NCBI GenBank assembly: GCA_031423895.1
Contig: JANPGK010000004.1
Location: 10,561 to 74,560, forward strand
Direction: 5' to 3'
From: Hyphomicrobiales bacterium
GTDB lineage: Bacteria; Pseudomonadota; Alphaproteobacteria; Rhizobiales; JANPGK01
DNA length: 64,000 bases
In this document: positions 4,568-64,000 of the stretch, piece by piece
Layout of the letters: the number at the start of each line of letters is the position of its first letter
Numbering within the stretch: the stretch's first letter is position 1
Notes under the pieces: generated by a model
Seen by the model: the letters and a program-made list of their open reading frames with translations, nothing else
What the model was told of the DNA's origin: nothing
Databases searched by the model: none
Position numbers and translations under genes: made by a program

Positions 4568-4577
4568 TGCACTTAAG

Positions 4578-4760
4578 GCTCCCCACTTGTGGGGGAGCTG
4601 GCGAGCGTAGCGAGACTAAGGGGGGTAAGAAACGTTTTGCGAAGCAAATGAAACGATCCAGTGAATCGTTTCAAGTTTCGAACGCCCGTAGCGATGCGAA
4701 GGGCAGGGAAAGCAAAACAAGAAAACCCCTCCCCCTAACCCCCTCCCACAAGGGGAGAAG
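4578..4760. repeat. Composite family-B repeat (B1 hairpin module, spacer, B2 module), copy 1, intergenic between flbD and flhA
   Basis: The B1 module is GCTCCCCACTTGTGGGGGAGCTG..CTAAGGGGGGTAAG. The B2 module is AAAACCCCTCCCCCTAACCCCCTCCCACAAGGGGAG. The same modules recur at 38326, 47214 and 49339. The spacer holds further hairpins (GAAACGAT-N7-ATCGTTTC). Confidence 0.8.
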
Positions 4761-6945: not shown

Positions 6946-7024
6946 GTCATCCTGAACGTGAGTAAAGGATCTCCAGCCGATTGAGTTCAATCTCAAGGAG
7001 ATTCTTCGCTGTGCTCAGAATGAC
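6946..7024. repeat. Family-A palindromic repeat, copy 1 (intergenic, after flhA)
   Basis: Termini GTCATCCTGA....CAGAATGAC with internal AAGGATCTC / GGAGATTCTTC. Related copies are at 31184 and 44462. Confidence 0.75.
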
Positions 7025-9906: not shown

Positions 9907-10039
9907 GGTGTGCTCGTAGAATTTAACGCAAATCTGCGTAATTTTGCAAAAAAAAGCTATTGCATGCCATATATTTTTGTGAAAGTATTTTTTAAGAATT
10001 TATCTTAATCACAGATTGATAATAGAAGGAGACATTACT

Positions 10040-10579
10040 ATGACAGCATATACCTCAGCCGTGCATCATAAACTCGAAAATATTTACAATTCAATTTTAC
10101 GACATCAAGCCTATTCATTATTTCCCCAAGAAGAACAAGCGGCCTTGTTTAAATGCAATGGTCAAAAAAATCATGTAAACATGTCTTTGGAATTGTTAAA
10201 AAATGATGTAGATAAATTACAATATCCCGTTGCATGGGGCCCCAAAACATATATGAGTGCTCAACAGCTCATGCCCGATATACTGAAGCTTTCCCCTACA
10301 GTTGTTGGATTGAAAGATCAAGCTTTGCAGAAGCTAGTGCTAGATAAAATGTCGGATGATGAGCGACGCATGGATTTTTGTAAAAAGATGTTAGACAATT
10401 TGAATGAAAAGATTGCCGCGCTGCAAATCAGCAAAAATGAAATTATCAGTAAGGCATTCAAGGGTTTGAAACCCTTCACACATTATGCGGCAGCCGCGGC
10501 GTTGCTTGTTGCTGCTGTTACAGGCTTCTTTGCCGTGCGTGGTTCTGGTGCGCCATTTGAAGGCAATCGAACAGCCTAA
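10040..10579 (+). CDS. Hypothetical protein, low-GC orphan with a C-terminal hydrophobic anchor
   Basis: Start ATG 10040 has GGAG 10 nt upstream. I recognise no family. The C-terminus is ..FKGLKPFTHYAAAAALLVAAVTGFFAV followed by a short tail. The gene is visibly more AT-rich than its neighbours. Confidence 0.5.
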   Translation: MTAYTSAVHHKLENIYNSILRHQAYSLFPQEEQAALFKCNGQKNHVNMSLELLKNDVDKLQYPVAWGPKTYMSAQQLMPDILKLSPTVVGLKDQALQKLVLDKMSDDERRMDFCKKMLDNLNEKIAALQISKNEIISKAFKGLKPFTHYAAAAALLVAAVTGFFAVRGSGAPFEGNRTA

Positions 10580-10676
10580 CTGAAAAAATTAGCATACAAG
10601 GCAATCTCATTATTCATGATGGGATTGCCACCACGCCCGCGCTGCGCTATGGCTTGTCTCAAGAATAGGGCATCCC

Positions 10677-12699: not shown

Positions 12700-12735
12700 T
12701 GTTCCACGAATTAACGAGACAGCGCTCTTTATTTC

Positions 12736-12803
12736 GTCATCCTCGGGCTTGACCCGAGGATCTACTTAAAGTGGATGGTCGGATCAAGCCCGACTATGAC
12801 GGC
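12736..12803. repeat. Family-C repeat, copy 1 (intergenic between trpA and accD)
   Basis: Sequence GTCATCCTCGGGCTTGACCCGAGGATCTACTTAAA..GATGGTCGGATCAAGCCCGAC. A longer inverted copy is at 44698..44786. It shares the GTCATCCT terminus with family A. Confidence 0.7.
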
Positions 12804-18836: not shown

Positions 18837-18857
18837 TGTGTGTCCTCAAGATGATTT

Positions 18858-18938
18858 AAGAGTTGAAATGCTCACGCTCCAACTCTTATTACGCTTCGCG
18901 GTTCGCTATTGCTCCTGCCAATTCATCAGATGAATTGG
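18858..18938. repeat. Family-D structured repeat, copy D1 (intergenic)
   Basis: Hairpin 1 is AAGAGTTG-N14-CAACTCTT. The core is ACGCTTCGCGGTTCGCTATTGCTCC. Hairpin 2 is CCAATTCAT-CAG-ATGAATTGG. Related units are at 42792, 57170 and 63969. Confidence 0.7.
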
Positions 18939-19016
18939 GCGCATTATCAATCAATATAATCGCTTGAAAACGCCTGCGCATTGATCCATATCATGCACAT
19001 ATGGAAATGAAGTGCA

Positions 19017-31157: not shown

Positions 31158-31183
31158 GTGAGTCTTCATTCTCAATAATCGTT

Positions 31184-31265
31184 GTTATCCTGAGGCATCG
31201 CCGAAGGATCTCTTGCCGCCTCAGGCTCCGTTCAGGGAGATCCTTCACCTGCGGTTCAGAATGAC
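31184..31265. repeat. Family-A palindromic repeat, copy 2 (intergenic between mlaD and the RND gene)
   Basis: Sequence GTTATCCTGAGGCATCGCCGAAGGATCTC...GGGAGATCCTTCAC...TTCAGAATGAC. Degenerate extra terminus-like motifs flank it (TCATTCTCA at 31167, CTCAGGATAGC at 31275). Confidence 0.75.
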
Positions 31266-37833: not shown

Positions 37834-40800
37834 TCACGTAATTGTGTTGAGGGGGATGGATTCGATGTGCCCTGAATGAGTCCATACAATTCGCGCTTCA
37901 ATGGGGTGTGGCGTGGGCAGTGTGTGCAGCAATAATTGCGCATATAGCGCCAATTGTGCGGCATATTGGGGGGCTATCCCGCCCGTATAGGCTTCAGTTT
38001 TAAAGTCGATGATCACATGGGCTGTGGGCGTGATGGCCAGCAGATCAATACGGCCAGAAATCAATTGTTGAGTGCCATTAACGAGCAATTCTCCTAAAAT
38101 AGGTAGCTCGGCATATCGTTGCGGCGCATTCCACACATCGGCCAATGCGGGCAGGGCAGCGGTACGGCGCACTTCAGTGATGATACCCTGCGGCGCGCCT
38201 GCATGTGCGTGTGGGTCAGTTTTGGTGATATAGGCCACCAATTGCGCATCATCGGGCAGGTTGGGCACCAATTCGAGCAATTTGTGGATGATGGTACCAC
38301 GCAAGGCTGGGTTTTTGATAGACAGGCTCCCCACTTGTGGGGGAGCTGCTGAGTGTAACGAAGCTGAGGGGGGTATTCTTTCTTCATATTTAGATACGTT
38401 ACCCCCCTCAGTCACGCCCAACAAAAAATTGGGCGCGCCAGCTCCCCCACAAGTGGGGAGCATAAGTAAAGTAGCCGCTTCACGTACGCTTATGCTCGAT
38501 GGCAAAATAATGCTGTGCAAGGCCGCGGGGGGGGGCAGTTGCGCATCACACTCAGCGGCAGATATGGGCAATTGCGCGGTGGGCACAGTGAGGGGCGCAG
38601 TTGTGGTGCGCAAGCGTTTGAAGCTGCCGTGAGGCGTTTCGATCACCTCATGCGTGCCACCCCATGCCTGCACTGCGGCGTCTATTGCGGTGTACCAAGC
38701 GGTAGGCATTGCGATGTCGATGGTGTTTTTTTCCAGTGCATTGGCTTGCTTCTGCCCTGCAGCACCAAAAATAAACACTCTGTCGCGCGCGCGGGTGAGT
38801 GCCACATAGAGCAGCCGCATGGTTTCAGCATATTCTGCGGTGTTGTGCGCGTCTTTTGCCGTGGTGAAGGCGGGCGGCGCAGCGTGTTTATGCACGGTTA
38901 AAATTGGGGTGTTGCACTGCGTAAACAAAATTTTAGGCGCTTTTTGCTGGCGATAATCAAAGCAGCTGTCGGCCAATATCACCACGGGCGCTTCCAGCCC
39001 TTTGGCATTGTGCACGGTCAGAATGCGCACGGCGGTGCTGGCTTCGCTCATTTCGCGCTTTAAAATATGCGATGTAGTGCGGATCCACTGGGTGAAGCTG
39101 AACAGATCGGGCACATTTTGTTCCTCAAATTTTAGGATCAAGCCTAAAAATTCATCGAGAATTTCATGCACATCGGTGCCCATGCGTGTAGCAAACGCCA
39201 CACGCCCATTGGTGTTGCTGAGCATATGCATGAAAAATTCATAGGGTCGCGTGGTGAGCGCCAAGGCTTGCAAATGGTGCAATTGTGCTAATGCAGCGCC
39301 CCAATGTGGCTGCTCATGTGCGCGCGCCTCAAGCGCTTGCAACAACGTGCCGCTGCGCTGCGGCGCAATCGCAAGGATGTCGTCTTCATTGAGGCCCAAT
39401 ATTGGCGATTTCAGCGCGCAAGCCAGTTGCAAATCATCCTGCGGCAGCAGCACACAATCGGCCAACGCCAGCAGATCCTGCACGGCAATATTGTCGGTGA
39501 GGGTCAGCCGATCTGCACCGCCAACCGGGATGCCAGCATCGCGCAGTGCTTTCAGCAGCGTCTCAAATATGCCCTTACGCGCGCGCACCAATATTAAAAT
39601 ATCGCCTGCGGTGATGCGACGCGGGGCCCCGTTTTTGCCCTCCACCACATGAGGCGCGGTGAGTAGGTCTTGGATGGTATAAATAATTTGCTGCACCATT
39701 TTATGAATGGCATTGCGGGGCTGCTGCGGCGCCGTGGCGGCCTCCCATGTGAGTGTAATTTCGTGCTTGGTGTCGGGCAGGCACAGCGGCCACACATCCA
39801 CACAGCCAAAACTGCTGCGGCGCTGGGTTTCATGGATCACGGGTGTGGCATCGGTGGTGAGCTGCTGCGCACGCGGGCGCGGGGCAAACACACCATCCAC
39901 AAGCGCCAACACATCGGGAGTGGTGCGGAATGAAATTTGCAGCGGCTCTTCATGCCATTCCAGCTGCGCATCGGTAATTTTATGAGCAAATGTGGCCTTC
40001 ATATGGGCAAATCGCTCTGGCGCTGCGCCTTGAAAACGGTAAATTGATTGTTTCTCATCCCCCACCACAAACACAGTGCGGGTTTTAGCGCGGCCCGCAT
40101 CGCCCACAAAAAACTCACTCGAAAGTTGCCAGATGATGTCCCATTGCGCATGGCTGGTGTCTTGGGCTTCGTCCACAAGAATGTGATCGATCCCCCCATC
40201 GAGTTTGTAATGCACAAAGGCGGCATCGGCACGCAGCAATAAATTGCGGGTTTTGAGCACCAAATCGTCGAAATCGAGCATGCGTTGCGCGGTTTTGGCG
40301 GCTTGATAGTGTTTCATCACCTCAATGGCAACCGTAATGGCACTGAGGCTGGCCTCAAAGGCGCGGAAATTATACACATGGGTGCGCAGTTCCAACAATT
40401 GGGCGATGCAGGTCTCATAAAACAGGGCATGTTCAGGGAATTGTGTCACAATGTCCTTGGTGGGGGATCGTTTTTTCAGCAGCTCGCCTGATTGCGTTTC
40501 CACCAATTTCATCAAACCCGCAAACCGCGTGTTGAACGACGATGCGGCCAGGCTTTCCCGCAGATATGTGGCAATTTTGGTGTCGTGATCCTTGCCCGTT
40601 TCAAAAATTTGGCATAGCCAGTGCACCATTTTTGGATTTGTCAGCGGAATATCGCGCAGCTGTTTTGCCAGCGTTTCAAGGGTTTGCGTGGGCGGCACAT
40701 CTAGCGTGGCCCGTAGCGCCAATTCAAGCGATTGCGTGGTGTGGTTTAACATGAAGCTGAGTAGCGCATCGCGTTTAGAAAGCAGCCCTTGCAGGTGCAT

Positions 40801-41376
40801 TTCTAGCTGCGCACTGCCCAAAATACTGTGCAAACGCTTTAAATCTGCATGAAATGGCGAGCCAATTTGGCCCGCGCTGCGATAGAATTTTTGGAAAGCG
40901 CCCGCCCATAATGTTTGTATTTGGGGTTCATCTAGCAGTGTGAAACTTGTGGGCACAGGGGCTTCAAACGGAAATTGCTGCAGCACACGCTCGCAAAATG
41001 CATGAAGCGTTTGAATTTTCAAACCGCCAGGCGTTTCTAGCGCTGTGGCAAATAATCTGCGGGCATGGCGCAATTGGCGCGAGCTGGCAGGCGCATTGGT
41101 TAGGGTTTCAATGGCAATTTTCAACGCGGCATCATCTAAATTGACCCAAATTTTGAGGGTATCAAACACGCGTGCGGCCATTTCAGCTGCAGCGGCGCGG
41201 GTGAAGGTGAGGCACAGAATTTTTTCAGGAGGTGTGCCTGCCAATAGTAAGCGGATCACCCGCTGCGTGAGCACGTGCGTTTTGCCCGAGCCTGCATTGG
41301 CGGCCACCCACGCGCTGGCGTTTGTATGCGTGATCCGCGCGATTTTTTGGGCGTGGCTGCTCAAGGGGTTATTCAT
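37834..41376 (-). CDS. addA: Double-strand break repair helicase-nuclease AddA
   Basis: UvrD-type helicase motifs (AANAGSGKTHVLTQR, VDEAQDTS, ..) and a C-terminal PD-(D/E)XK nuclease region. I placed the start at ATG 41376, overlapping the addB stop by 8 nt. The longer ORF-track start at 41532 would run 160 nt into addB. Confidence 0.9.
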   Translation of the reverse strand: MNNPLSSHAQKIARITHTNASAWVAANAGSGKTHVLTQRVIRLLLAGTPPEKILCLTFTRAAAAEMAARVFDTLKIWVNLDDAALKIAIETLTNAPASSRQLRHARRLFATALETPGGLKIQTLHAFCERVLQQFPFEAPVPTSFTLLDEPQIQTLWAGAFQKFYRSAGQIGSPFHADLKRLHSILGSAQLEMHLQGLLSKRDALLSFMLNHTTQSLELALRATLDVPPTQTLETLAKQLRDIPLTNPKMVHWLCQIFETGKDHDTKIATYLRESLAASSFNTRFAGLMKLVETQSGELLKKRSPTKDIVTQFPEHALFYETCIAQLLELRTHVYNFRAFEASLSAITVAIEVMKHYQAAKTAQRMLDFDDLVLKTRNLLLRADAAFVHYKLDGGIDHILVDEAQDTSHAQWDIIWQLSSEFFVGDAGRAKTRTVFVVGDEKQSIYRFQGAAPERFAHMKATFAHKITDAQLEWHEEPLQISFRTTPDVLALVDGVFAPRPRAQQLTTDATPVIHETQRRSSFGCVDVWPLCLPDTKHEITLTWEAATAPQQPRNAIHKMVQQIIYTIQDLLTAPHVVEGKNGAPRRITAGDILILVRARKGIFETLLKALRDAGIPVGGADRLTLTDNIAVQDLLALADCVLLPQDDLQLACALKSPILGLNEDDILAIAPQRSGTLLQALEARAHEQPHWGAALAQLHHLQALALTTRPYEFFMHMLSNTNGRVAFATRMGTDVHEILDEFLGLILKFEEQNVPDLFSFTQWIRTTSHILKREMSEASTAVRILTVHNAKGLEAPVVILADSCFDYRQQKAPKILFTQCNTPILTVHKHAAPPAFTTAKDAHNTAEYAETMRLLYVALTRARDRVFIFGAAGQKQANALEKNTIDIAMPTAWYTAIDAAVQAWGGTHEVIETPHGSFKRLRTTTAPLTVPTAQLPISAAECDAQLPPPAALHSIILPSSISVREAATLLMLPTCGGAGAPNFLLGVTEGGNVSKYEERIPPSASLHSAAPPQVGSLSIKNPALRGTIIHKLLELVPNLPDDAQLVAYITKTDPHAHAGAPQGIITEVRRTAALPALADVWNAPQRYAELPILGELLVNGTQQLISGRIDLLAITPTAHVIIDFKTEAYTGGIAPQYAAQLALYAQLLLHTLPTPHPIEARIVWTHSGHIESIPLNTIT
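38326..38461. repeat. Inverted pair of family-B1 modules, located inside the addA coding sequence
   Basis: GCTCCCCACTTGTGGGGGAGCTG..CTGAGGGGGGTATTC, a 19-nt spacer, then the reverse-complement module GTTACCCCCCTCAG..GCTCCCCCACAAGTGGGGAGC. The AddA frame stays open across it. Confidence 0.8.
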
Positions 41377-44300
41377 CTTCGCCGCCTTCATCTTCCTCGG
41401 CCAGCACACCCCATTCGGCAATGCGCGCCAAATGGTCGTAATCGGTGTAGCTCGCGATTTTCCCGCCATATGGTTTGACATAAAACGGGTGGGTTGGGGT
41501 GCACATGGCCTGCAGCGCCACATGCACGCCATCGAGAATATTGGTGCGCATTTGCGCTAAGGCCTCGCCTTTGCCCATGGGCTGCGATGCTTTTAGTTGC
41601 GTGAAATTATCGGTGAATTTGATGTATTCCAGTGCATGTATGGAAGTGAGTGTGCCGTTTTTCTCAAAATTTTGGGCATGTGCCATTTCCCCCAGTAGCA
41701 CCAATTGTGGATAAAGCCCCGCATTCACTAGTTTTGTGGCGGGCACAACCCCTGTTTTAAAATCGCTTATCACAATGCCATCGCTGCGCTGTTCCACGCG
41801 GTCGGCCCGGCCATGAATGGTGAATTTCTCCCCCATAATATCCCACTGCATGCGATACGACACTTCGCAGCGTACTTTATGCGTATGCTGGCGGCGAGCC
41901 TGTTCAAACGCAATGATGCCATCGACCACGCCATGTAATTGCAGCCGCCATAAAATCCGTTCTTTATCTGGCAAAACGCTGGTGTGGGTTTCAATCTCAG
42001 TCAATACGCTGTTGTGCAGCGCCTGTGTGTCGTCGCTCCACTGTGTGGCCGCCAGCTCAACAATTGTGTGGATGAGGGCCCCGCGAATGCGCGCATCGGG
42101 CAATTGGCCAATGGGTTCAAGAGGCTTCAAGCCCAACACATATTCGGCATAAATGGCATAAGGGTTGTGTAGCAGGGTTTCAATTTTGGTGACAGAAAGC
42201 GTTTTAGGCCGCAATGCCACAGCAGGGCAAGGGGTTGGTGCGGCAATGGGCGCAAAATTATGCGTGGCGTTGTGCGCGCGCACCTGTGCCAGCACTGCAT
42301 TGCCACGGCTGCGCCACGGTTCAAAGCTATGTGTGCCCATCACCGCCGAAATGCGCTGCAAAAACCGCGATGGCAGTGTTGGTGCGCCGCCCTCGCGTAC
42401 CGATCGCGTGAGAATAATGTGGTTTTGCCCCATAAATTGTGCAAAATCATGCGCTGAAAGCGCAATGCGCCGCTCTGGCATGGGCAAACCAATGGCACTG
42501 CGGAGTGCTCGCCCCAGCCACACATCGGGCATATTGGCTGGCGGCCACATACCTTCATTGAGCCCACCCAAAATCACCGTGTCGAATGTGTGCAAACGCG
42601 CTTCCAACGCGCCCATCACCACAATGCGGCTGTTGTGCAGGGGGGGCGGTAATGTGGGCGCCATGTTCAAAATTTGGGTGAGAATGGCGGGGTATGCCGC
42701 GAATGGGATTAAAAATTGCGTGGCTTGGCCAGTATGCGCATCGTGAATGGCTTGCAACACTGTGGTGTGAGCGGTGTCGGCATCATAGTTTAAAACTTGG
42801 CATGCTGTCGCGCCAAGTTGAAGACACGCTTCGCGGTTCGCTATCGCTCCTTCCAAATTTTGAGAAAATTTGGGGATATCTTCATCCTGTACAACGGGCA
42901 CGAGCGCGGCAAAAATTTGGGCAAATTGCTCATTGTAGGTGGCAAAAGGTTGGTGCGGATTATCGGCAGTTTGCAAGGCCAAAAATGGTGCAATTGCCGC
43001 CAAATAGCCTTCTAAAACCGCCTGCGCGTTGTGCCAATCCTCTAAGGTGAGTGATTTTTGCGCGTGGGTCAGCTGATGCGGCTTTGCACCTTCGCAGTGA
43101 GCATTTTGCCATGTTTCAAAATTATGAGCAAGCGCCGCATTCCAATCGCCAGCAGGGGCAATGCCGCGAAATAGCGCGCATTCCAGCGCGGTAACAGCTG
43201 TTTTTAGATCCAAAACGCCTTCAACCTGCACCATAGGGTGACGCAAAAATGCCAGTGCGGCTGCGGGAGATTGTGGCGCGGCTAGCGCATCAAGCAACAG
43301 GCGGGCGGCACGCCCTGGCATGGTGTGCAACAATGGCAACCCGCCAGAATCGGGCACATCAACTCCAAATGCCTGCAAATGCGCACACACGCGCCGCGCT
43401 AGGGTGCGGTTTGGCGTGATCAGTGCCGCAGTTTCATGAGGTGTGGCGGCTGTTAGGCGTAATTGCAGCGCAATGCTCAGCGCTTCCTCTTCCTCATGTG
43501 CAGCCTCTAAAAGCGTGACATGCGCGGTGGCGTTCATCAATTCTGCATCGCATTGCTGCACGCGCCATGAATGCCATTCATCGGTGGTGCTGGCGGGCTG
43601 CAAGGCATAAGACACAATGGTTTCGAGCAGCGGTGGCGGGGTTATACGCCCTAAAATCGGCACATCGGCAGGGTGGGCAATATGCAGAGTAGTGAGCAGC
43701 CGCTTGAGGTGAATTTGCGGGTGAGTTTCGGCCTGCCCAGCAGCGCCAATGGCCGCCCAAGCGGTTACGCTCAGCTGCGTGTCAAGCCCCGGAATGATGA
43801 GCGTGCCATATGGGCTGCGGGCAATCGCGGCCAATAGCTCCGCAGTGGCAGGCGTTGAGCCAGTGGAGCCCGCCGCGATGACGCGGCCAAATTGTCCCGC
43901 CTCAATGCGCTGCGCCATGGCATGGATGGCTTCATCCCAGGCCACAATTGGGTCTTGCAGGCTATGGTCCTGCAAAAATTGCGGCCATTGCTGTAGTACT
44001 ATGTTCAAAAAACCGAGGTTGAGCTCGTGGCTGCCCAAAAATTCGGTGGGAATCATGTCTGCAATTGCGTGCGCACTCACATGCTCAAGCGTAAGCTGGT
44101 CAAGCGTATTGGCCAAATCTTGCGCCAGCGCAACACATTCAGCATGGGAAATCTGTATAAAAATTGGGTCGTTTGGGTTGTGCCATTTTGGTGTGTGGCC
44201 TGCATTCACCGCCGCATATACCGCCTGTTTCCATTGCAAAATTAAGCGTGCCAGCACCCATACGCGCTGGGTGGGTGTAACCGTCGTTTCTGATATATCT

Positions 44301-44668
44301 TCATGTTCCAGCCCAATTTCACCCACATCCCGCACGGGAATGATGCGTGGCAAAATTAGGGCTTGCGTACCAGCTTGCCGCAATAATTCCAGCTCAAAAT
44401 TTTTGCATGCACGCCGAGTGGGGAAAAATATGGTGGTATTGGCGAGTGCGAATGGGCTTATGTCATCCTGAGGCTGCGCCGAAGGATCTCCCAGAATGTG
44501 AGCACAATCGGAAGGAGATCCTTCACTCCCGTCTTCGCTACGCTTCGCCGAGGCAAGTCGTTCAGGATGACAGCTGCTGTTGGTTTGCCCACCCAACACA
44601 AACTGTGCCAATGTTTCAAAAAACGGCCGCGACGCGGGGATGGTGTAGATGTTGGGTGCGTGAGGCAT
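41369..44668 (-). CDS. addB: Double-strand break repair protein AddB (alphaproteobacterial type)
   Basis: About 1100-aa ORF upstream of and overlapping addA. The N-terminus is MPHAPNIYTIPASRPFFETLAQ...FFPTRRA and there is a C-terminal PD-(D/E)XK-like region. Start ATG 44668 (ORF-track start 44719 lies inside repeat C2). Confidence 0.9.
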   Translation of the reverse strand: MPHAPNIYTIPASRPFFETLAQFVLGGQTNSSCHPERLASAKRSEDGSEGSPSDCAHILGDPSAQPQDDISPFALANTTIFFPTRRACKNFELELLRQAGTQALILPRIIPVRDVGEIGLEHEDISETTVTPTQRVWVLARLILQWKQAVYAAVNAGHTPKWHNPNDPIFIQISHAECVALAQDLANTLDQLTLEHVSAHAIADMIPTEFLGSHELNLGFLNIVLQQWPQFLQDHSLQDPIVAWDEAIHAMAQRIEAGQFGRVIAAGSTGSTPATAELLAAIARSPYGTLIIPGLDTQLSVTAWAAIGAAGQAETHPQIHLKRLLTTLHIAHPADVPILGRITPPPLLETIVSYALQPASTTDEWHSWRVQQCDAELMNATAHVTLLEAAHEEEEALSIALQLRLTAATPHETAALITPNRTLARRVCAHLQAFGVDVPDSGGLPLLHTMPGRAARLLLDALAAPQSPAAALAFLRHPMVQVEGVLDLKTAVTALECALFRGIAPAGDWNAALAHNFETWQNAHCEGAKPHQLTHAQKSLTLEDWHNAQAVLEGYLAAIAPFLALQTADNPHQPFATYNEQFAQIFAALVPVVQDEDIPKFSQNLEGAIANREACLQLGATACQVLNYDADTAHTTVLQAIHDAHTGQATQFLIPFAAYPAILTQILNMAPTLPPPLHNSRIVVMGALEARLHTFDTVILGGLNEGMWPPANMPDVWLGRALRSAIGLPMPERRIALSAHDFAQFMGQNHIILTRSVREGGAPTLPSRFLQRISAVMGTHSFEPWRSRGNAVLAQVRAHNATHNFAPIAAPTPCPAVALRPKTLSVTKIETLLHNPYAIYAEYVLGLKPLEPIGQLPDARIRGALIHTIVELAATQWSDDTQALHNSVLTEIETHTSVLPDKERILWRLQLHGVVDGIIAFEQARRQHTHKVRCEVSYRMQWDIMGEKFTIHGRADRVEQRSDGIVISDFKTGVVPATKLVNAGLYPQLVLLGEMAHAQNFEKNGTLTSIHALEYIKFTDNFTQLKASQPMGKGEALAQMRTNILDGVHVALQAMCTPTHPFYVKPYGGKIASYTDYDHLARIAEWGVLAEEDEGGEDE
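42792..42873. repeat. Family-D structured repeat, copy D2, inside the addB coding sequence
   Basis: Hairpin 1 is AAAACTTGG-N12-CCAAGTT. The core is ACGCTTCGCGGTTCGCTATCGCTCC. Hairpin 2 is CCAAATTTT-GAG-AAAATTTGG. Confidence 0.7.
44462..44571. repeat. Family-A palindromic repeat, copy 3, inside the addB coding sequence (N-terminal region)
   Basis: GTCATCCTGAGGCTGCGCCGAAGGATCTC...GGAGATCCTTCAC...TTCAGGATGAC, with perfect 10-bp terminal inverted repeats. Confidence 0.75.
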
Positions 44669-44697
44669 GTGGTTTTCACGTCCATAATACGTCATGG

Positions 44698-44786
44698 TCG
44701 GGCTAGTAGACCCGACCATCTTCTTTTAAAGTAGATCCTCGGCCATCCGCTTTCGCCCGAAAGCGGGCTACAGCGAGACAAGCGCC
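44698..44786. repeat. Family-C repeat, copy 2 (inverted relative to copy 1), immediately upstream of addB
   Basis: The reverse complement reads GTCATCCTCAGG...GAGGATCTACTTTAAA..GATGGTCGGGTCTACTAGCCCGAC, matching 12736..12803 apart from a larger internal hairpin segment. Confidence 0.7.
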
Positions 44787-46521: not shown

Positions 46522-47298
46522 TCATGTAATTTTGTCAAATCTCAAATAACAACTCCTTCGCCCCTCGCGCCGTGCTTTGGCTTCATAGCGGGTTTGCACC
46601 CAGCCCTCATAAGGTGTGAGGAAATCAGCGGCGGTGTGCGCTGGCCATGTGAACGCGGGGTGTTCGCGGATGTGCTGCAAGGTCCACGCCGCATAGCTAT
46701 CAATATCGGTGGCACAGCGAAATTGGCCGCCCAGCACCAAAATACGGGCGAATTCATTCAGCGCATCGATGGAGACAAAGCGCCGCTTCCAATGGCGTTT
46801 TTTGTGCCATGGGTCGGGGTAAAACAGGTGCACATGCGAGAATTGCGCATCTGGCAGGGTACGCAGCAAAAAATGTGCATCGTCATTATAAAAGCGGATG
46901 TTGGGCAGGTGTTCATCCAAGCAATCGCGCACAGCGGCGGCATATCCATTCAAAAACGGCTCCACGCCGATGAAGCCCACAGTGGGGTTATTGCGGGCGC
47001 GGTTAAGCAAGTGCTCGCCCGAACCAAAGCCAATTTCCAGCTCATAGCGTTCGAATGGTTGGCCAAATAGCTGTGATAGATCGAGCATTTGCCCATGCGT
47101 AAACGTAATATCTACAGCGCCTTGCTGGGCGATGGCGTCTTTTTTGCCAAGCGATAGCGCCTTGCCTTTGCAGCGGCCATAAAACTTGCGGATGGTTTCG
47201 GGTGGGGGTGAAGATTCTCCCCTCCCCTTGCGGGAGGGGGTAGGGGGAGGGGTTTTCTCATCAGCATTCGCTGAGTATATGTTTGGAATATTATCCAT
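46522..47298 (-). CDS. trmB: tRNA (guanine-N7)-methyltransferase TrmB with a repeat-encoded N-terminal extension
   Basis: Core motifs: EIGFGSGEHL, FYPDPWHKKRHWKRRF. The first ~38 aa (..EKTPPPTPSRKGRGESSPPP..) are encoded by the family-B2 repeat module. Confidence 0.85.
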   Translation of the reverse strand: MDNIPNIYSANADEKTPPPTPSRKGRGESSPPPETIRKFYGRCKGKALSLGKKDAIAQQGAVDITFTHGQMLDLSQLFGQPFERYELEIGFGSGEHLLNRARNNPTVGFIGVEPFLNGYAAAVRDCLDEHLPNIRFYNDDAHFLLRTLPDAQFSHVHLFYPDPWHKKRHWKRRFVSIDALNEFARILVLGGQFRCATDIDSYAAWTLQHIREHPAFTWPAHTAADFLTPYEGWVQTRYEAKARREGRRSCYLRFDKIT

Positions 47299-47354
47299 TA
47301 AGAATACCCCCCTCAGTCACGCTATGCGTGACAGCTCCCCCGCAGGTGGGGAGC
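47214..47354. repeat. Composite family-B repeat (B2, spacer, B1 in reverse orientation), copy 3, straddling the trmB start codon
   Basis: B2 spans 47214..47257 (TCTCCCCTCCCCTTGCGGGAGGGGGTAGGGGGAGGGGTTTT). B1 spans 47300..47354 (AAGAATACCCCCCTCAG..GCTCCCCCGCAGGTGGGGAGC). The trmB ATG (47298) lies in the spacer between them. Confidence 0.8.
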
Positions 47355-47361
47355 CGTTTTC

Positions 47362-49310: not shown

Positions 49311-50698
49311 TTTTAAGAAATATGTGCCTTTACTTTACCTCTCCCCTTGTGGGAGAGGGTGGCGCGAAGCGCCGGGTGAGGGGTTTTCTTTCTAGCGCCG
49401 TGAAGAATACCCCCCTCAGTCTCGCAAGCGCTCGACAGCTCCCCCACAAGTGGGGAGCATTAAGTATATGCTTATTTATTCTATGTATTTTTATTTTCCC
49501 CGCCCACGCGCAACAAAGTGGCGACCCGCAATTTCAGGCTTTTGTTCAGCAAAAAATCTGGCCAAAAGCCCAAGCCGCAGGCATTGATCAAGCCACTTTC
49601 GCGGCGGCGTTTGAGGATGTGACCTCGCCCGACCGCTCTATTTTGGGCACGGCCAAAAAGCAGCCCGAATTTGCCAGCACAGTGGGCAATTATGTGGGCA
49701 AACGCGTTTCGCCTGCGCGCATTCAAAATGGGGCAAAAAAGCTGGAAGATGGCCGCATTCACAACGCGTTGAGCCAAATCGGCAAAAAATATAATGTGGA
49801 TCCATTTGTTGTGCTCTCCATTTGGGGTATTGAATCCTCCTATGGCGCGGCGCTCAACCCCGAAACGCTGAAAAACGTGTTTCGCTCGATGGCCACTTTG
49901 GCGTATGCAGACAGTGCGCGACGCGAGTTTGGCTTTGAACAAACCATTGCAGCGCTGAAAATTGTGAAGCGTGGCTATGCTGAAGTGCATGAAATGCGCG
50001 GCTCGTGGGCGGGCGCAATGGGGCACACGCAATTCATACCCACAAGTTATTTGGTGTATGCGCAAGATTTTGACGGCGATGGACACCGCGATATTTGGAA
50101 CAATATTGGCGATGCATTGGCCTCAACCGCCGCACATTTGGCCACATCCGAAGGCAATGCCCCTACATGGATTGACGAAGAGCCATGGGGCGTGGAAGTG
50201 GTGGTGCCGCAGGGCTTTAATTATGCCAATGCGTATGAAAATGGTGGATTTGAGGAAAAATCGATCACAGCATGGCAACAGCTTGGCATTCGTGCGGCTA
50301 GCGGCGGCCTGCCAAACTCACGCGGCGAGGCTACGCTCTATGTGCCATCGGGCGTAAATGGCCCTGCATTTTTGCTATACCCGAATTTTAAGGTGATTAA
50401 GCGCTATAATTTCTCAAATGCCTATGCGTTGGCAGTGGGGTTGCTCGCCGACAGGTTGCGCGGTGAAAATGTGCCAGTACGATCATGGCCAAGCGATGAC
50501 GACCAACTCACGCGCATTGCCGATGTGAAACTGCTGCAAAGCCGCCTCACACAATTGGGCCATTATAATGGCAAAATTGATGGGTTCGTGGGGCCCAAGG
50601 TCTATGCCGCCACCCATGCGTTTCAAGCGCGTGCGGGCATTTCCCCTGCTGATGGGCTGCCTACGCAAGAAGTCTTGGAAGCGTTGCGCGATAAATAG
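49307..50698 (+). CDS. Lytic murein transglycosylase (MltB/SLT_2-like) with a C-terminal peptidoglycan-binding domain; start codon uncertain
   Basis: Catalytic region ..LSIWGIESSYG..., WAGAMGHTQFIPTSY. The C-terminal PG_binding_1-like repeat is LQSRLTQLGHYNGKIDGFVGPKVYAATHAFQ. The signal peptide (..LSICLFILCIFIFPAHA/QQ) follows the repeat-encoded residues. An in-frame GTG at 49400 is an alternative start. Confidence 0.8.
   Translation: MILRNMCLYFTSPLVGEGGAKRRVRGFLSSAVKNTPLSLASARQLPHKWGALSICLFILCIFIFPAHAQQSGDPQFQAFVQQKIWPKAQAAGIDQATFAAAFEDVTSPDRSILGTAKKQPEFASTVGNYVGKRVSPARIQNGAKKLEDGRIHNALSQIGKKYNVDPFVVLSIWGIESSYGAALNPETLKNVFRSMATLAYADSARREFGFEQTIAALKIVKRGYAEVHEMRGSWAGAMGHTQFIPTSYLVYAQDFDGDGHRDIWNNIGDALASTAAHLATSEGNAPTWIDEEPWGVEVVVPQGFNYANAYENGGFEEKSITAWQQLGIRAASGGLPNSRGEATLYVPSGVNGPAFLLYPNFKVIKRYNFSNAYALAVGLLADRLRGENVPVRSWPSDDDQLTRIADVKLLQSRLTQLGHYNGKIDGFVGPKVYAATHAFQARAGISPADGLPTQEVLEALRDK
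49339..49458. repeat. Composite family-B repeat (B2 plus B1, reverse orientation), copy 4, inside the 5' end of the transglycosylase ORF
   Basis: CTCTCCCCTTGTGGGAGAGGGTGGCGCGAAGCGCCGGGTGAGGGGTTTTC, a 13-nt spacer, then GAAGAATACCCCCCTCAG..GCTCCCCCACAAGTGGGGAGC. Confidence 0.8.
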
Positions 50699-56640: not shown

Positions 56641-57474
56641 TCACACCCGATAATACGCCTGCCATGCCGTTTCAGCTTCTGTAATCGATTCTGGCATGCC
56701 CACATGCATCCACAGCCCCTCAAGCCGCACGCCGTGCAGGCGCTCTTGCGCAATCAGCGTGTTGAAAATGCGGTTGAGCGAAAATGCTGACCCCACGTCA
56801 TATTCATGAAACAGACTGGCCTTTAATATCGCCACGCCTGTATACACAAACGGCGCCACATCCACGCCCGCACGGCGGGTAATTGTGCCATCTTGCGCCA
56901 GATGAAAGTCGCCGCGCCCTTCATAGCCTGTGGTGTGGGGCGTTGCGGCCAATAGCAGTACCGCATCCATGCGGGCGGGGTCGAAATAGTGCCGCAAGCG
57001 CTGTAGGCCGCTACTGGCGCCATCAATCCACACTGTGTCGGAATTGCATAGATAAAACACATCGCGGTTGATGAGTGGCAGGGCCTTGGCTATGCCGCCG
57101 CCTGAATCGAGAATGTGGGTACGCTCGTCGGAGATAACAATTTCTATCTGGGGGATTTCCTCCCCCTTAGCGCCGCTATTATGTGCGGCGCCCCCCTCCA
57201 CGCTGCGCGCTGCGCTAGCGCTTGTGCCAAAATCACTGAGTGATTTTGGGTCTTGCTGACCTTGTAGCAAATGCGCTTCAAGCATGTCGGCCAAATAATG
57301 CACATTCACCACGGCGCGGTGCACACCTGCAGCGGCCAGCCTGTCGAGTGTGTGGTCAATCATCGCTCTGCCCATGACAGGCACCATGGGTTTGGGCATA
57401 TGCAAGGTGATGGGGCGCATGCGGGTGCCAAGCCCTGCGGCCAAAATCATTGCGGTGTCGATTTCAGCCACCAT
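56641..57474 (-). CDS. murU: Sugar-phosphate nucleotidyltransferase, MurU-like (N-acetylmuramate alpha-1-phosphate uridylyltransferase family)
   Basis: N-terminus AMILAAGLGTRMRPITLHMPKPMVPV. It sits beside the TsaE/AmgK-like fusion, as in other alphaproteobacteria. It carries a ~30-35 aa low-complexity insert encoded by repeat D3. Confidence 0.75.
   Translation of the reverse strand: MVAEIDTAMILAAGLGTRMRPITLHMPKPMVPVMGRAMIDHTLDRLAAAGVHRAVVNVHYLADMLEAHLLQGQQDPKSLSDFGTSASAARSVEGGAAHNSGAKGEEIPQIEIVISDERTHILDSGGGIAKALPLINRDVFYLCNSDTVWIDGASSGLQRLRHYFDPARMDAVLLLAATPHTTGYEGRGDFHLAQDGTITRRAGVDVAPFVYTGVAILKASLFHEYDVGSAFSLNRIFNTLIAQERLHGVRLEGLWMHVGMPESITEAETAWQAYYRV
57170..57249. repeat. Family-D structured repeat, copy D3 (diverged), inside the murU-like coding sequence
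   Basis: Hairpin 1 is GCGCCGC-N8-GCGGCGC. The core ACGCTGCGCGCTGCGCTAGCGCTTG matches the D2 core at 19 of 25 positions with no gaps. Hairpin 2 is CCAAAATCACT-G-AGTGATTTTGG. Confidence 0.6.
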
Positions 57475-57476
57475 GG

Positions 57477-59051
57477 TTATGCCTTCAAAAATTTTTCATT
57501 GAGTGCGTCCATCAGCCCTGTGGATTTCAGCCATGCCTCATAAGGTGCTAGCACACCGTGGCGCAAATTGTGGCGCAAATAGCCCCACACACGCGGTTGA
57601 TGTGCCTTATAATGGGGCTTGTGATCGCGGATGCACAGGCGTGAGAATATGCCCAGAATTTTGGTGGCGCGTTGTGCGCCCATCAGGGCATAATCAGCAC
57701 GGAATTGCACCATGTTGAAATGCTCATCGCTATCCACCCGCGTGGTGCAATAGGCCAGCAATAGGGCTTGCTCCAGCTCCAGCGGCACATCCACCCGCGC
57801 ATCTTGCCCCAGCGAGGCCACATCATAGGCAAAGGGGCCGTGCAGGCCGTCTTGAAAGTCGATCATGCCAATTGTTTTTGGCATCGGCCTTTCGTCACAC
57901 CAAATGATGTTGGGAGAGTGGAAATCGCGCAATACCAACGTTTCCTGCCGCTGGCTGATGGGGGCAAGCATGTCTTCCCATATCGCTTTGAAATCGGCAC
58001 ATTGCGCCGCGCTTGGCTGCGTGCCCAGCACATCGGGCACACCCCATTGGAGGAACAAATCCACCTCGGCCATCATGCAGGGCAGGTCGTATGGCGGCAG
58101 CGTGTATTGGCCATTGGGAATGGGCAAAGTGCCCGTGAATTTTTGGCTATGCAGCATCGCGAGCGCTTTGGCGCTGGCGATGTAACGATCAGGGATCGGT
58201 GCGCGAGTGGCATCCAGCACGCCCTCATGCCCCAAATCTTCCAGCACCAAAATGCCCTGCGCAATATCGTGATAAAACACTTTTGGTGCAGCGAACCCAC
58301 GGAAATTGAGCGCTTTGGATATGGCCACAAACGCGGTTTGATCCTCGGCCAAATGGGCGATGTGGCTATAGGCAGGGGCGGTGCTGGATATGCCGGAATC
58401 GGGCTTTGGGGGCGCGTCCATTATCACCAAAACAGTATCATTTTCATGCTTTTTATGCAGGCGGGGCGCGCCGAACTCACCACCAATGTGCAGGCGCTCA
58501 TAGCGACGCGATGAGGCATCCCCCGCCATGGGCGTGCGGCGAAATTGGCCATAACCCCATGCATCCAGTTGCGTTTTGAGGGCTAACACACGCGGCAAGC
58601 GCTGCGCCCAAACCCCATGCCCAACCAGTTGCCAAGTGCGTTCACCGCTGGCGTCCATATCCATGTGAATGGCCAGATGATGATCTGCCCACAATGCAGC
58701 GCCATGATCAGGCCATTCCACAAAGGTGATGTGGTGGGGGAGGAGGTCTTCCACGCCCAACTCCTCCACCTCATGCGCGGATGTGGTGCGGTATAAATCC
58801 ATGTGCAGGGCGGGCGTGGTGAATTCGGCGCTATCGTAGGTTTGGATAATGGTGAACGTGGGGCTGGGCACATCGAGTGCTTCATCGCCGCTCATGGCCA
58901 CCAAGCACGCGCGGGTGAATGTGGTTTTGCCCACGCCAAGGTCGCCATACAGCGCGATTACGTCGCCTTTATGCAGGGTTGGCACAAGCGCACGGGCGAT
59001 TGCATTCACAGCTTCGAGGGATAAGTTTGAGAGTGTGGTTTTATATGTCAT
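57477..59051 (-). CDS. tsaE: Bifunctional TsaE (t6A ATPase) / aminoglycoside-phosphotransferase-family kinase (AmgK-like) fusion
   Basis: The N-terminal ~150 aa is TsaE/YjeE (GDLGVGKTTFTR, ...HMDLYR). The remainder is an APH-type kinase (GDASSRRYERL, RDFHSPNIIW, IDFQD). Confidence 0.8.
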   Translation of the reverse strand: MTYKTTLSNLSLEAVNAIARALVPTLHKGDVIALYGDLGVGKTTFTRACLVAMSGDEALDVPSPTFTIIQTYDSAEFTTPALHMDLYRTTSAHEVEELGVEDLLPHHITFVEWPDHGAALWADHHLAIHMDMDASGERTWQLVGHGVWAQRLPRVLALKTQLDAWGYGQFRRTPMAGDASSRRYERLHIGGEFGAPRLHKKHENDTVLVIMDAPPKPDSGISSTAPAYSHIAHLAEDQTAFVAISKALNFRGFAAPKVFYHDIAQGILVLEDLGHEGVLDATRAPIPDRYIASAKALAMLHSQKFTGTLPIPNGQYTLPPYDLPCMMAEVDLFLQWGVPDVLGTQPSAAQCADFKAIWEDMLAPISQRQETLVLRDFHSPNIIWCDERPMPKTIGMIDFQDGLHGPFAYDVASLGQDARVDVPLELEQALLLAYCTTRVDSDEHFNMVQFRADYALMGAQRATKILGIFSRLCIRDHKPHYKAHQPRVWGYLRHNLRHGVLAPYEAWLKSTGLMDALNEKFLKA

Positions 59052-63590: not shown

Positions 63591-63854
63591 AACATCCTCA
63601 CAGGTCAATATTTATACGCAACGCATATAATTCACAGCCATGAGCATATGTATATTATGTATAGTGATCTTGATATGAATCAAGTATATTTGAAATATAT
63701 GTGTATTAATCACATATAAATTGAATACTCTGCTTAAATAATGAATTTTTGTTAGTTTTTAATGTAATAATGTTGCTTTTTATTAAATAATAACTAATTT
63801 CTCCCCTTTGTTTCTGAGAGTTAGGGGATTTTTGCTCAATTCAAAATTCAATTC

Positions 63855-63883: not shown

Positions 63884-63968
63884 CGCGTATCCTCCATACA
63901 GAATTCTGCTTGGTGGGCCGCCTTGAGAAGGGGTGGCGCATATCGCAGGGTCATATACTTTTGGGATT

Positions 63969-64000
63969 AAAAACTTGGAATCGCTGCGCGCCAAGTTTTA
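63969..64000. repeat. Family-D repeat, copy D4 (hairpin 1 only; truncated by the window end)
   Basis: AAAAACTTGG-AATCGCTGCGCG-CCAAGTTTT is nearly identical to hairpin 1 of D2 (AAAACTTGG-CATGCTGTCGCG-CCAAGTT). Confidence 0.5.

Follow-up and report, generated by a model that had tools for sequence, protein, structure and literature searches.

Palindromic repeats that lie in frame within housekeeping genes are textbook material mainly from Rickettsia, where they are presented as an unusual route to new protein segments and are described as deteriorating with age. These Rickettsia palindromic elements (RPEs) have been grouped as RPE-1 to RPE-10 (Ogata et al., 2000, 2002; as described in PMC1779305, PMC1166351, and PMC10969869). 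They are 100-150 bp long, abundant in both intergenic and protein-coding regions, and have proliferated in a lineage-specific manner (PMC1779305). The RPE-7 insertion in PheT is common to all Rickettsia (PMC1779305), and 85 of the 728 RPEs of R. felis lie within open reading frames (ORFs) (PMC1166351). Other short bacterial repeats include the REP/BIME/REPIN elements, which are mobilised by RAYT (TnpA-REP) transposases (PMC8266576, PMC3733652), and in-frame fusions have been reviewed for ERIC, BOX, BRE, Correia, and cyanobacterial MITEs (transposable elements of the miniature inverted-repeat type) (PMC3184786, PMC10969869). Here, we describe a hairpin-bearing repeat, family D, in a 64-kb stretch of contig JANPGK010000004.1 from a Hyphomicrobiales bacterium (hereafter the window, whose coordinates are used for all positions). 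One diverged unit of this family occupies part of a gene for a MurU-like sugar-nucleotidyltransferase. The likely explanation is an ancient in-frame insertion of the palindromic repeat, translated as a tolerated, disordered surface loop.

Family D resembles the RPEs in several ways. Both are short, interspersed, hairpin-capable repeats of which several families share one genome, and both occur between genes as well as in frame within housekeeping genes. Extra peptide segments arise at positions reported to suit the fold, some insertions are ancient and clade-wide, and no associated transposase is known. The features that define an RPE-like functional class are found here, namely multiple intergenic and coding copies, stable hairpins, an in-frame position where homologues lack the segment, and a fold-compatible site. 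However, the host differs. The window has 52% GC, encodes flagellar and chemotaxis genes together with tryptophan, leucine, and arginine biosynthesis genes, and gives Hyphomicrobiales-like protein matches; its TrpB shares about 80% identity with proteins of Bauldia, Hyphomicrobiales, and Rhodobiaceae. Base composition, gene content, and TrpB relatives thus indicate an uncultured non-rickettsial alphaproteobacterium. Family-D units are also shorter than RPEs (85-100 nt), and the hairpins in murU survived a divergence that saturated synonymous sites. Membership in the Rickettsia RPE families proper is not supported, the distinction resting on these host features, with no RPE model compared. Family D is a new family of the known RPE-like kind, and what goes beyond the usual description of that kind is the frame-independent retention of hairpins over deep divergence.

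The MurU-like protein has 34 additional residues, K77-I110 (KSLSDFGTSASAARSVEGGAAHNSGAKGEEIPQI), directly after the invariant Pro76. A preliminary description of this DNA had placed the peptide QDPKSLSDFGTSASAARSVEGGAAHNSGAKGEE between the conserved blocks ..YLADMLEAHL.. and ..IVISDERTHILDSGGG.., where it is indeed seen in the 277-aa ORF, and had described only a short linker in homologues. This linker is 7 residues long in alphaproteobacterial homologues and in the Pseudomonas enzyme alike. The homologue set consisted of the best 120 matches among 5.8 billion proteins, from which alignments of 11 and 61 sequences were made. In the 61-sequence alignment, the segment is missing from 59 of the 60 homologues, which read HL-x5-6-P-x-IVISDER without an insert. 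It is likewise missing from the solved P. putida MurU (4y7t), in which chain residues 69-82 correspond to query residues 74-121 in a phmmer alignment. Protein lengths agree with this pattern. Nearly all of the best 120 matches have 232-252 aa and one has 267 aa, and only an identical protein (P0001, 277 aa) and one relative (P0002, 283 aa) reach 277-283 aa. The longest other homologues aligned, of 252 and 267 aa, owe their additional length to N-terminal extensions. From translation of the element, tryptic peptides such as SLSDFGTSASAAR would be expected.

An AlphaFold2 model built on the 61-sequence alignment (mean predicted local distance difference test score, pLDDT, 80.6; predicted template modelling score, pTM, 0.81) is confident outside the loop. 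Its top fold matches in a Foldseek search of the Protein Data Bank (PDB) are the MurU structures 4y7u, 4y7v, and 4y7t (TM score 0.90; E = 1e-22 for 4y7u). In the model, the insert is located between helix 62-74 and strand 111-116. Residues from about 75 to 110 have a pLDDT of about 36-57, the block means after the helix are 57, 40, 36, and 65, and values are continuously below 50 at residues 83-102. Ligands of Rossmann-like alpha/beta folds are bound at the C-terminal edge of the sheet. The helix-to-strand connection enters the N-terminal end of the strand, the C-terminal end of which leads to the DSGGG substrate loop. Because the insert joins the N-terminal strand end, it should project from the face opposite the active site. 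From the fold topology, the loop should therefore be surface-exposed and away from the active site, and the insert is probably a disordered extension of an existing surface linker within the catalytic domain. The preliminary description had regarded it as an insertion into the enzyme core, which is riskier for function than one into a linker. That view is not supported; the model places it in a low-confidence loop between a helix and a strand, a site that is compatible with the fold.

The link between this insert and family D rests on profile comparisons. The family has a plan of hairpin 1, a GC-rich core, and a CCAA...TTGG hairpin 2, and it was described with profile hidden Markov models and a regular expression for the core. 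The 64 kb hold five copies, of which three are intergenic, one is in addB, and one is in murU. With copies between genes and in addB, this is an interspersed repeat and not a feature specific to murU. Copies 18856 and 42790 match one another at E about 1e-8. As claimed earlier, the core of the murU unit (57200-57224) is identical to the copy in addB (42826-42850, called D2 in the preliminary description) at 19 of 25 positions; it is identical to 10638-10662 at 21 of 25. Comparisons of the murU unit with single copies are marginal (E = 0.04-0.07 to 42790, 0.1-0.4 to 10600, and 0.4-0.5 to 18856), with a constant register in all of them. With a profile of the 18856 and 42790 copies, the murU unit is the best non-member match (E = 0.0035). 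With a profile of the four other copies, murU being left out, 57199-57239 is the top non-member at 22.4 bits (E = 4.1e-6). This is about 11 bits above the best score of 11.4 bits in 40 Markov-1 simulated 64-kb sequences. The possibility that the core similarity is no better than chance, considered in the preliminary description, is not borne out, and its proposal that a diverged family-D unit encodes the insert has gained support from the leave-out profile.

An ordinary lineage-specific loop extension by slippage or low-complexity expansion could in principle mimic such a unit if the resemblance arose from GC-rich GCGCT repeats. The marginal single-sequence similarity and the compositionally simple core would suit this explanation, as would a left half without a family match and an orthologous insert that is not D-like. 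However, chance resemblance does not account for the leave-out profile score, and the murU unit matches the other copies in register, in orientation, and in the CCAA...TTGG hairpin that directly follows the core on its 3' side. Slippage would not be expected to yield three or four perfect hairpins (z = -6.75), and murU and addB read their copies in different frames. Thus, a loop extension of this kind is highly improbable.

The reading frames carry further weight. The elements in murU and addB are both in + orientation and both host genes are on the - strand, which gives the two units the same orientation relative to their genes, as had been noted. The codon phases were also read correctly, with base 57200 at codon position 2 (residue 92) and base 42826 at codon position 1 (residue 632 of the addB ORF). 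The core is therefore read as TSASAARSV by murU and as GAIANREAC by addB. Because the two copies are read in different frames, their DNA similarity is not a by-product of peptide similarity. In each of the two genes, the copy has the same two sense frames open and the remaining one closed, in line with the earlier statement that the element is open in at least two. The unused addB frame would yield FSKFGRSDSEPRSV, which visibly resembles the murU peptide LSDFGTSASAARSV. With no stop codon in two of three sense frames, the unit can be read through as peptide. At its own family-D unit, the addB-like ORF has about 25 additional residues compared with 15 homologues (about 34% identity).

The hairpin-bearing element proper spans 57150-57249 and contains three hairpins, A, B, and C, all with perfect arms (Table 1). 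The Pro76 codon forms the outer end of the third (C). Hairpins B (57170-57191) and C (57227-57249) are the two listed in the preliminary description, which stand as described; hairpin A (57150-57166) and the orthologous insert discussed below were not part of it. The CCAA...TTGG frame of hairpin C recurs at 18918-18938 and 42853-42873. The stem of hairpin B differs from hairpin 1 of the other family-D copies, and in a MAFFT alignment of the copies the hairpin arms are out of register, with stems differing in length and sequence. The sense-strand RNA fold of the insert has -53.5 kcal/mol (z = -6.75, 200 dinucleotide shuffles), and the other copies give hairpin z-scores of -2.8 (addB), -2.0 to -2.7 (18856), and -3.3 (10600). 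In a GC-corrected scan of all 100-nt windows, the murU insert is the 9th most structured locus of the window, and several higher-ranked loci (38361, 12721, 47241, and 6911) coincide with other repeat families. No Rfam families, tRNAs, or promoter-like or terminator-like sites were found in or near the murU insert.

The age of the insertion can be judged from P0002, which is encoded on the Logan contig L001, the only close relative found. Its gene also lies downstream of tsaE-amgK. The P0002 insert has 40 residues in the same frame, also starts right after the invariant Pro, and, like that of the window, stops 3 residues ahead of the conserved strand, which reads IVISDER in the window and IQISDER in the relative. 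Outside the insert, the two proteins share 69% amino-acid identity, compared with 33% inside it. Nucleotide identities of 0.74, 0.83, and 0.51 at codon positions 1, 2, and 3 outside the insert indicate purifying selection with saturated synonymous sites. On the sense strand, the L001 insert has the hairpins CGCATCAC-gca-GTGATGCG, GCCGC-gcaaaga-GCGGC, and GGGGGGA-gaa-TCCCCCC (fold z = -3.4), so that the three hairpins follow one another in the same order in both genomes. These comparisons suggest an old insertion that predates the split from the relative, with one ancestral event as the simplest account. A recent insertion, as implied in the preliminary description, does not fit the relative, whose insert occupies the same position and has these three hairpins as well. 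P0002 also comes close to the case, raised there, of a homologue that has a similar insert but lacks the repeat. However, its insert DNA is also a three-hairpin palindromic element, and it is therefore not such a case.

Alternatively, related elements could have entered a single preferred murU target independently and more recently in the two lineages. The different lengths (34 and 40 residues) are compatible with separate events, and the L001 core is not D-like and holds a 9-nt tandem duplication. Conservation of the hairpin arms far exceeds that of flanking synonymous sites, and a Pro codon stands on either side of both inserts (P...P), perhaps as the mark of a CCN target. Yet the inserts agree in start codon, end, frame, and hairpin order, for which one ancestral event is simpler. 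The window holds no second copy of hairpin A or B as a recent donor, the other four copies have no obvious common target, and target specificity is undocumented for the family. Independent insertion is accordingly quite improbable.

If the insertion is ancestral, the peptide has drifted while the hairpins have stayed stable. The arm cores ATCAC/GTGAT, GCCGC/GCGGC, and GGGGGA/TCCCCC are identical between the window and L001 at all 32 bases, compared with 42 of 86 bases in the remaining insert. The outer part of hairpin C is altered on both sides (CCAAA/TTTGG in the window, CGC/GCG in L001). Because the loops are of unequal length, three of the six arms (GCGGC, GGGGGA, and TCCCCC) are in a different codon phase in the two genomes, and arm identity is thus not explicable by protein-level selection. 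When substitutions alone were simulated at 51% per-site identity, stretches of 5 or more consecutive pairs were left in at least 3 of 4 helices in only 2e-4 of runs, and the same survival was reached in 1% of runs even at 0.70 identity. These figures come from two orthologues only, with arms picked after seeing both sequences and a simulation that ignores indels. A Fisher test of stem against non-stem identity (p = 1.5e-8) is not relied on, as the arms were defined from the shared sequence. We conclude from these sequence comparisons that the hairpins appear to have been preserved by something other than protein-level selection, which may be selection for structure, hairpin-templated repair, or conversion from other copies.

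One way to explain this preservation is a nucleic-acid role, in which the insert would be a functional structured element that happens to be translated. Candidate roles are a structure in the tsaE-amgK-murU mRNA that controls how fast the transcript decays or is translated, a DNA site bound by a structure-specific protein, and continued recognition by the mobilising enzyme of the element itself. This explanation concerns maintenance and is compatible with a repeat origin. It draws on the persistence of three hairpins in the orthologue despite saturated synonymous sites, the invariant and partly phase-shifted arm cores, the two-sided change in the outer part of hairpin C, and the simulation. 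On the other hand, two orthologues with arms chosen post hoc allow no real covariation test, there is no Rfam match or promoter- or terminator-like signal, and the intergenic copies have no common position relative to genes. Palindromes can also stay perfect without selection, through hairpin-templated (template-switch) repair or gene conversion. A nucleic-acid role is possible but unlikely. The same low probability applies to the broader claim that the murU hairpins are actively maintained at the nucleic-acid level, whether through selection on a function of the RNA or DNA or through a mechanism that repairs palindromes.

Whether the host gene still encodes a working enzyme bears on how far the insert is tolerated. 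The product of the 277-aa ORF matches Pfam NTP_transferase, and its best solved relatives in a sequence search of the PDB are Pseudomonas MurU 4y7t (1.4e-29) and 8hhd. The top NCBIfam match is MurU NF045697 (245.8 bits), which does not reach the curated equivalog cutoff of 370, and the score for NF045761 (160.4 bits) does not reach its cutoff of 250. Both profiles, although the best matches, align in two pieces, the second of which starts again at profile position 67 or 71. Inserts of this type lower family-model scores, and MurU here drops under the equivalog cutoff. The gene immediately upstream fuses TsaE (tRNA t6A ATPase) and an AmgK-like MurNAc/GlcNAc kinase into a single 524-aa protein, and this synteny supports the MurU assignment. 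The top NCBIfam match of the kinase part is AmgK NF045698 (E = 3e-61, 207.8 bits, under the 500-bit curated cutoff). The fusion is also present in L001 (526 aa, 70% identical), and amgK and murU are usually neighbours, as in Caulobacter, where they are adjacent as CC_3535/3536 (PMC11980594). The gene is labelled MurU-like here, since the modelled fold, the conserved residues, and the synteny agree and the equivalog score threshold is missed.

Could the insertion have inactivated murU and left a decaying pseudogene? Loss of the salvage route could be tolerated, since the partner kinase gene amgK is deletable in Caulobacter (PMC11980594). However, the ORF is intact in both lineages, and identity between them is highest at codon position 2, lower at position 1, and far lower at position 3. 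All 66 invariant columns of the 61-sequence alignment are retained in the protein, the fold model is confident outside the loop, and its start codon follows the amgK stop by 2 nt. A pseudogene is scarcely credible on this evidence.

The preferred explanation, an ancient insertion translated as a tolerated loop, would involve the following steps. A short, non-autonomous, hairpin-rich family-D repeat would have inserted in frame into murU, the direction from repeat to gene being the one that we infer. The point of insertion would have been the codons for the 7-residue surface linker that joins helix alpha-3 to the beta-strand after it. The unit of about 100 nt, stop-free in two of three sense frames, would be translated as 34 predicted residues rich in Ala, Ser, and Gly. 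These may make up a flexible loop on the face of the Rossmann-like fold that is distal to the active site, and the enzyme would most likely still be functional. After the split from the relative, the peptide would have drifted fast while the hairpin arms were kept at the nucleotide level.

Several observations weigh against a family-D insertion. Only the right half of the murU unit (core and hairpin 2, about 50 nt) is detectably family D, and nowhere else in the 64 kb is there a copy of the left half (hairpins A and B). 'Diverged family-D unit' is a fair label because only these two parts are recognisable. The family-D profile fails to detect the L001 insert, and the murU unit itself matches it only weakly (E = 0.075). 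A degenerate core pattern run against one genome per species gave 10 matches in unrelated phyla, close to a rough chance estimate of about 9, and a stricter core pattern had no match in JGI metagenomes. With these scans at chance level or empty, the source genome and its relatives appear not to be in the two collections. No pair of empty and filled sites was found among closely related genomes, and neither terminal inverted repeats nor a target-site duplication is established for family D. The flanks of the five copies have no common direct repeat, and their ends share only the CCAA/TTGG of their own hairpins. The Pro codons that bracket the murU insert in both lineages may reflect a 2-3 nt duplication or coincidence. 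Finally, Pfam scans of about 50 ORFs in the window gave neither a transposase nor a RAYT domain.

The copy upstream of trpB illustrates the difficulty of finding an empty site. The region was compared with that of the NCBI metagenome assembly GCA_021733565.1, whose TrpB is 96% identical (85% at the DNA level). In this assembly, trpF lies 21 nt upstream of trpB (L016 99-765). In the window (10016-10671), trpF is replaced by an AT-rich ORF without a family match (10016-10579), followed by the family-D copy. The window region looks like a local rearrangement or insertion. Because synteny differs upstream of trpB, no clean filled/empty comparison is available for this copy.

The remaining described systems share some features with family D. 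Like REPs, its hairpins include short, GC-rich, perfect palindromes around the chromosome with stems that vary between copies while pairing is retained. The five copies also share a single orientation, that of the strand on which GC skew is positive along the whole window (cumulative skew 0.10 -> 0.85), which is reminiscent of strand-biased single-strand transposition; five copies are too few for a strand bias to be claimed (chance about 1 in 16). However, REPs are 20-40 nt long, are typically extragenic, and carry a GTAG or CGTC tag, whereas family D has a conserved non-palindromic core between two unlike hairpins. A reading of the sequence finds no GTAG or CGTC tag adjoining the family-D hairpins, and the Pfam scans found no RAYT gene in the window. 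Bacterial MITEs (Correia, ERIC, BOX/RUP, BRE, Nezha, and Anabaena MITEs) are likewise small, non-autonomous repeats with open frames that become internal or terminal parts of host proteins. Their definition, however, calls for terminal inverted repeats and target-site duplications that match a parent insertion sequence, and neither feature is shown for family D. The coding palindromes of Nematomorpha mitochondria (PMC6649704) are also perfect inverted repeats in translated, functional genes. There, however, the arms code for conserved regions of proteins and are not part of interspersed repeats, whereas the murU hairpins lie in an added, fast-evolving loop.

Table 1. Coordinates in the window of the murU insert, its host locus, and related repeats.
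Feature	Position	Strand	Description
MurU-like sugar-nucleotidyltransferase gene	56641-57474	-	277-aa ORF
Inserted segment	57145-57249	-	Codons K77-I110 (57145-57246) and Pro76 codon (57247-57249); from alignments
Hairpin A	57150-57166		GGGGGA-tttcc-TCCCCC; no counterpart in other family-D copies; common to L001 insert
Hairpin B	57170-57191		GCGCCGC-tattatgt-GCGGCGC; in hairpin-1 position of family D
Family-D core	57199-57226	+	CACGCTGCGCGCTGCGCTAGCGCTTGTG; GC-rich; profile match 57199-57239
Hairpin C (family-D hairpin 2)	57227-57249		CCAAAATCAC-tga-GTGATTTTGG; last three bases (57247-57249) are the Pro76 codon
Family-D copy, intergenic	18856-18939	+	Between a FAD-binding monooxygenase-like gene (-) and ftsY (+)
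Family-D copy in addB-like ORF	42790-42874	+	ORF 41369-44719 (-); read in frame as PKFSQNLEGAIANREACLQLGATACQVL
Family-D copy, intergenic	10600-10671	+	Immediately upstream of trpB; hairpin 1 and core, hairpin 2 degenerate
Family-D copy, cut at window end	63967-64000	+	Logan contig L002 supplies 8 further bases (core start), then stops
Fused tsaE-amgK gene	57477-59051	-	Upstream of murU, same orientation; stop 2 nt before murU start
Family-Z hairpin unit	44480-44532		In frame near the addB N-terminus (addB ORF -); further copies 6956-7008, partly 31183-31212
Two inverted family-X units	38324-38468		In frame in addA-like ORF 37834-41532 (-), just before the PD-(D/E)XK nuclease domain
Family-X units	4571-4627, 38324-38380, 38400-38468, 47300-47355, 49403-49466		

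The copy at the window end is covered by L002, a 7.6-kb Logan contig of the same organism that lies inside the window but for 8 bases beyond its end. This contig stops within the family-D copy (L002 1-44, window 63967-64000), so the repeats appear to break short-read assemblies. Just before the truncated copy lies a very AT-rich intergenic stretch (63641-63740, GC 0.22).

Two observations concern the genes next to murU. Within the amgK coding region, 58095-58205 has three adjacent hairpins with a strong fold (z about -4 on the plus strand). It was considered as a further insert and rejected, since the region has the same length as its L001 orthologue and is thus probably not an insert. In L001, amgK and murU have between them a 108-aa gene on the opposite strand that has no Pfam match (L001 4332-4658); in the window, the two genes are 2 nt apart.

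Self-comparison of the window revealed at least four repeat families besides D. At the family-Z unit of addB, about 31 residues (NSSCHPERLASAKRSEDGSEGSPSDCAHILG) are missing from 15 addB homologues. Family X (GCTCCCCACTTGTGGGGGAGCTG... then ...GGGGGGTA) is the commonest repeat of the window, and its two inverted units in addA form the strongest structure found there (38324-38468, -95 kcal/mol, z = -11.5). The addA homologues have a shorter but variable linker at this position, and the case is less clean than that of murU. The family-X hairpin also occurs in three short metagenome contigs (L013-L015; 56-62% GC) and is thus common to other organisms; the same contigs hold no family-D copies. Family Y is C-rich (AAACCCCTCCCCCTAACCCCCTCCCACAAGGGGAG), and its inverted copies at 4720-4757 and 47222-47258 adjoin family-X units, which suggests composite elements. 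A self-complementary doublet at 12735-12801 consists of two inverted hairpins that each start CGTCAT (CGTCATCCTCGGGCTTGACCCGAGGATC...), with a second copy right at the beginning of addB (44690-44742). The doublet resembles a REP pair with CGTC tags, of the REPIN/BIME type.

Taken together, the window presents the same phenomenon as in Rickettsia in an alphaproteobacterial lineage that is motile, apparently free-living, and known solely through metagenomes, with at least three repeat families involved and three genes (murU, addB, and addA) affected within 64 kb. The frame-independent retention of the arms in murU provides a concrete case in which to ask if coding palindromes are just tolerated or actively kept. 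If the hairpins were actively maintained, these genes would contain 'living' coding palindromes, present in several core genes at once. The lineage would then offer a tractable system outside Rickettsia for learning why such elements persist in genes.

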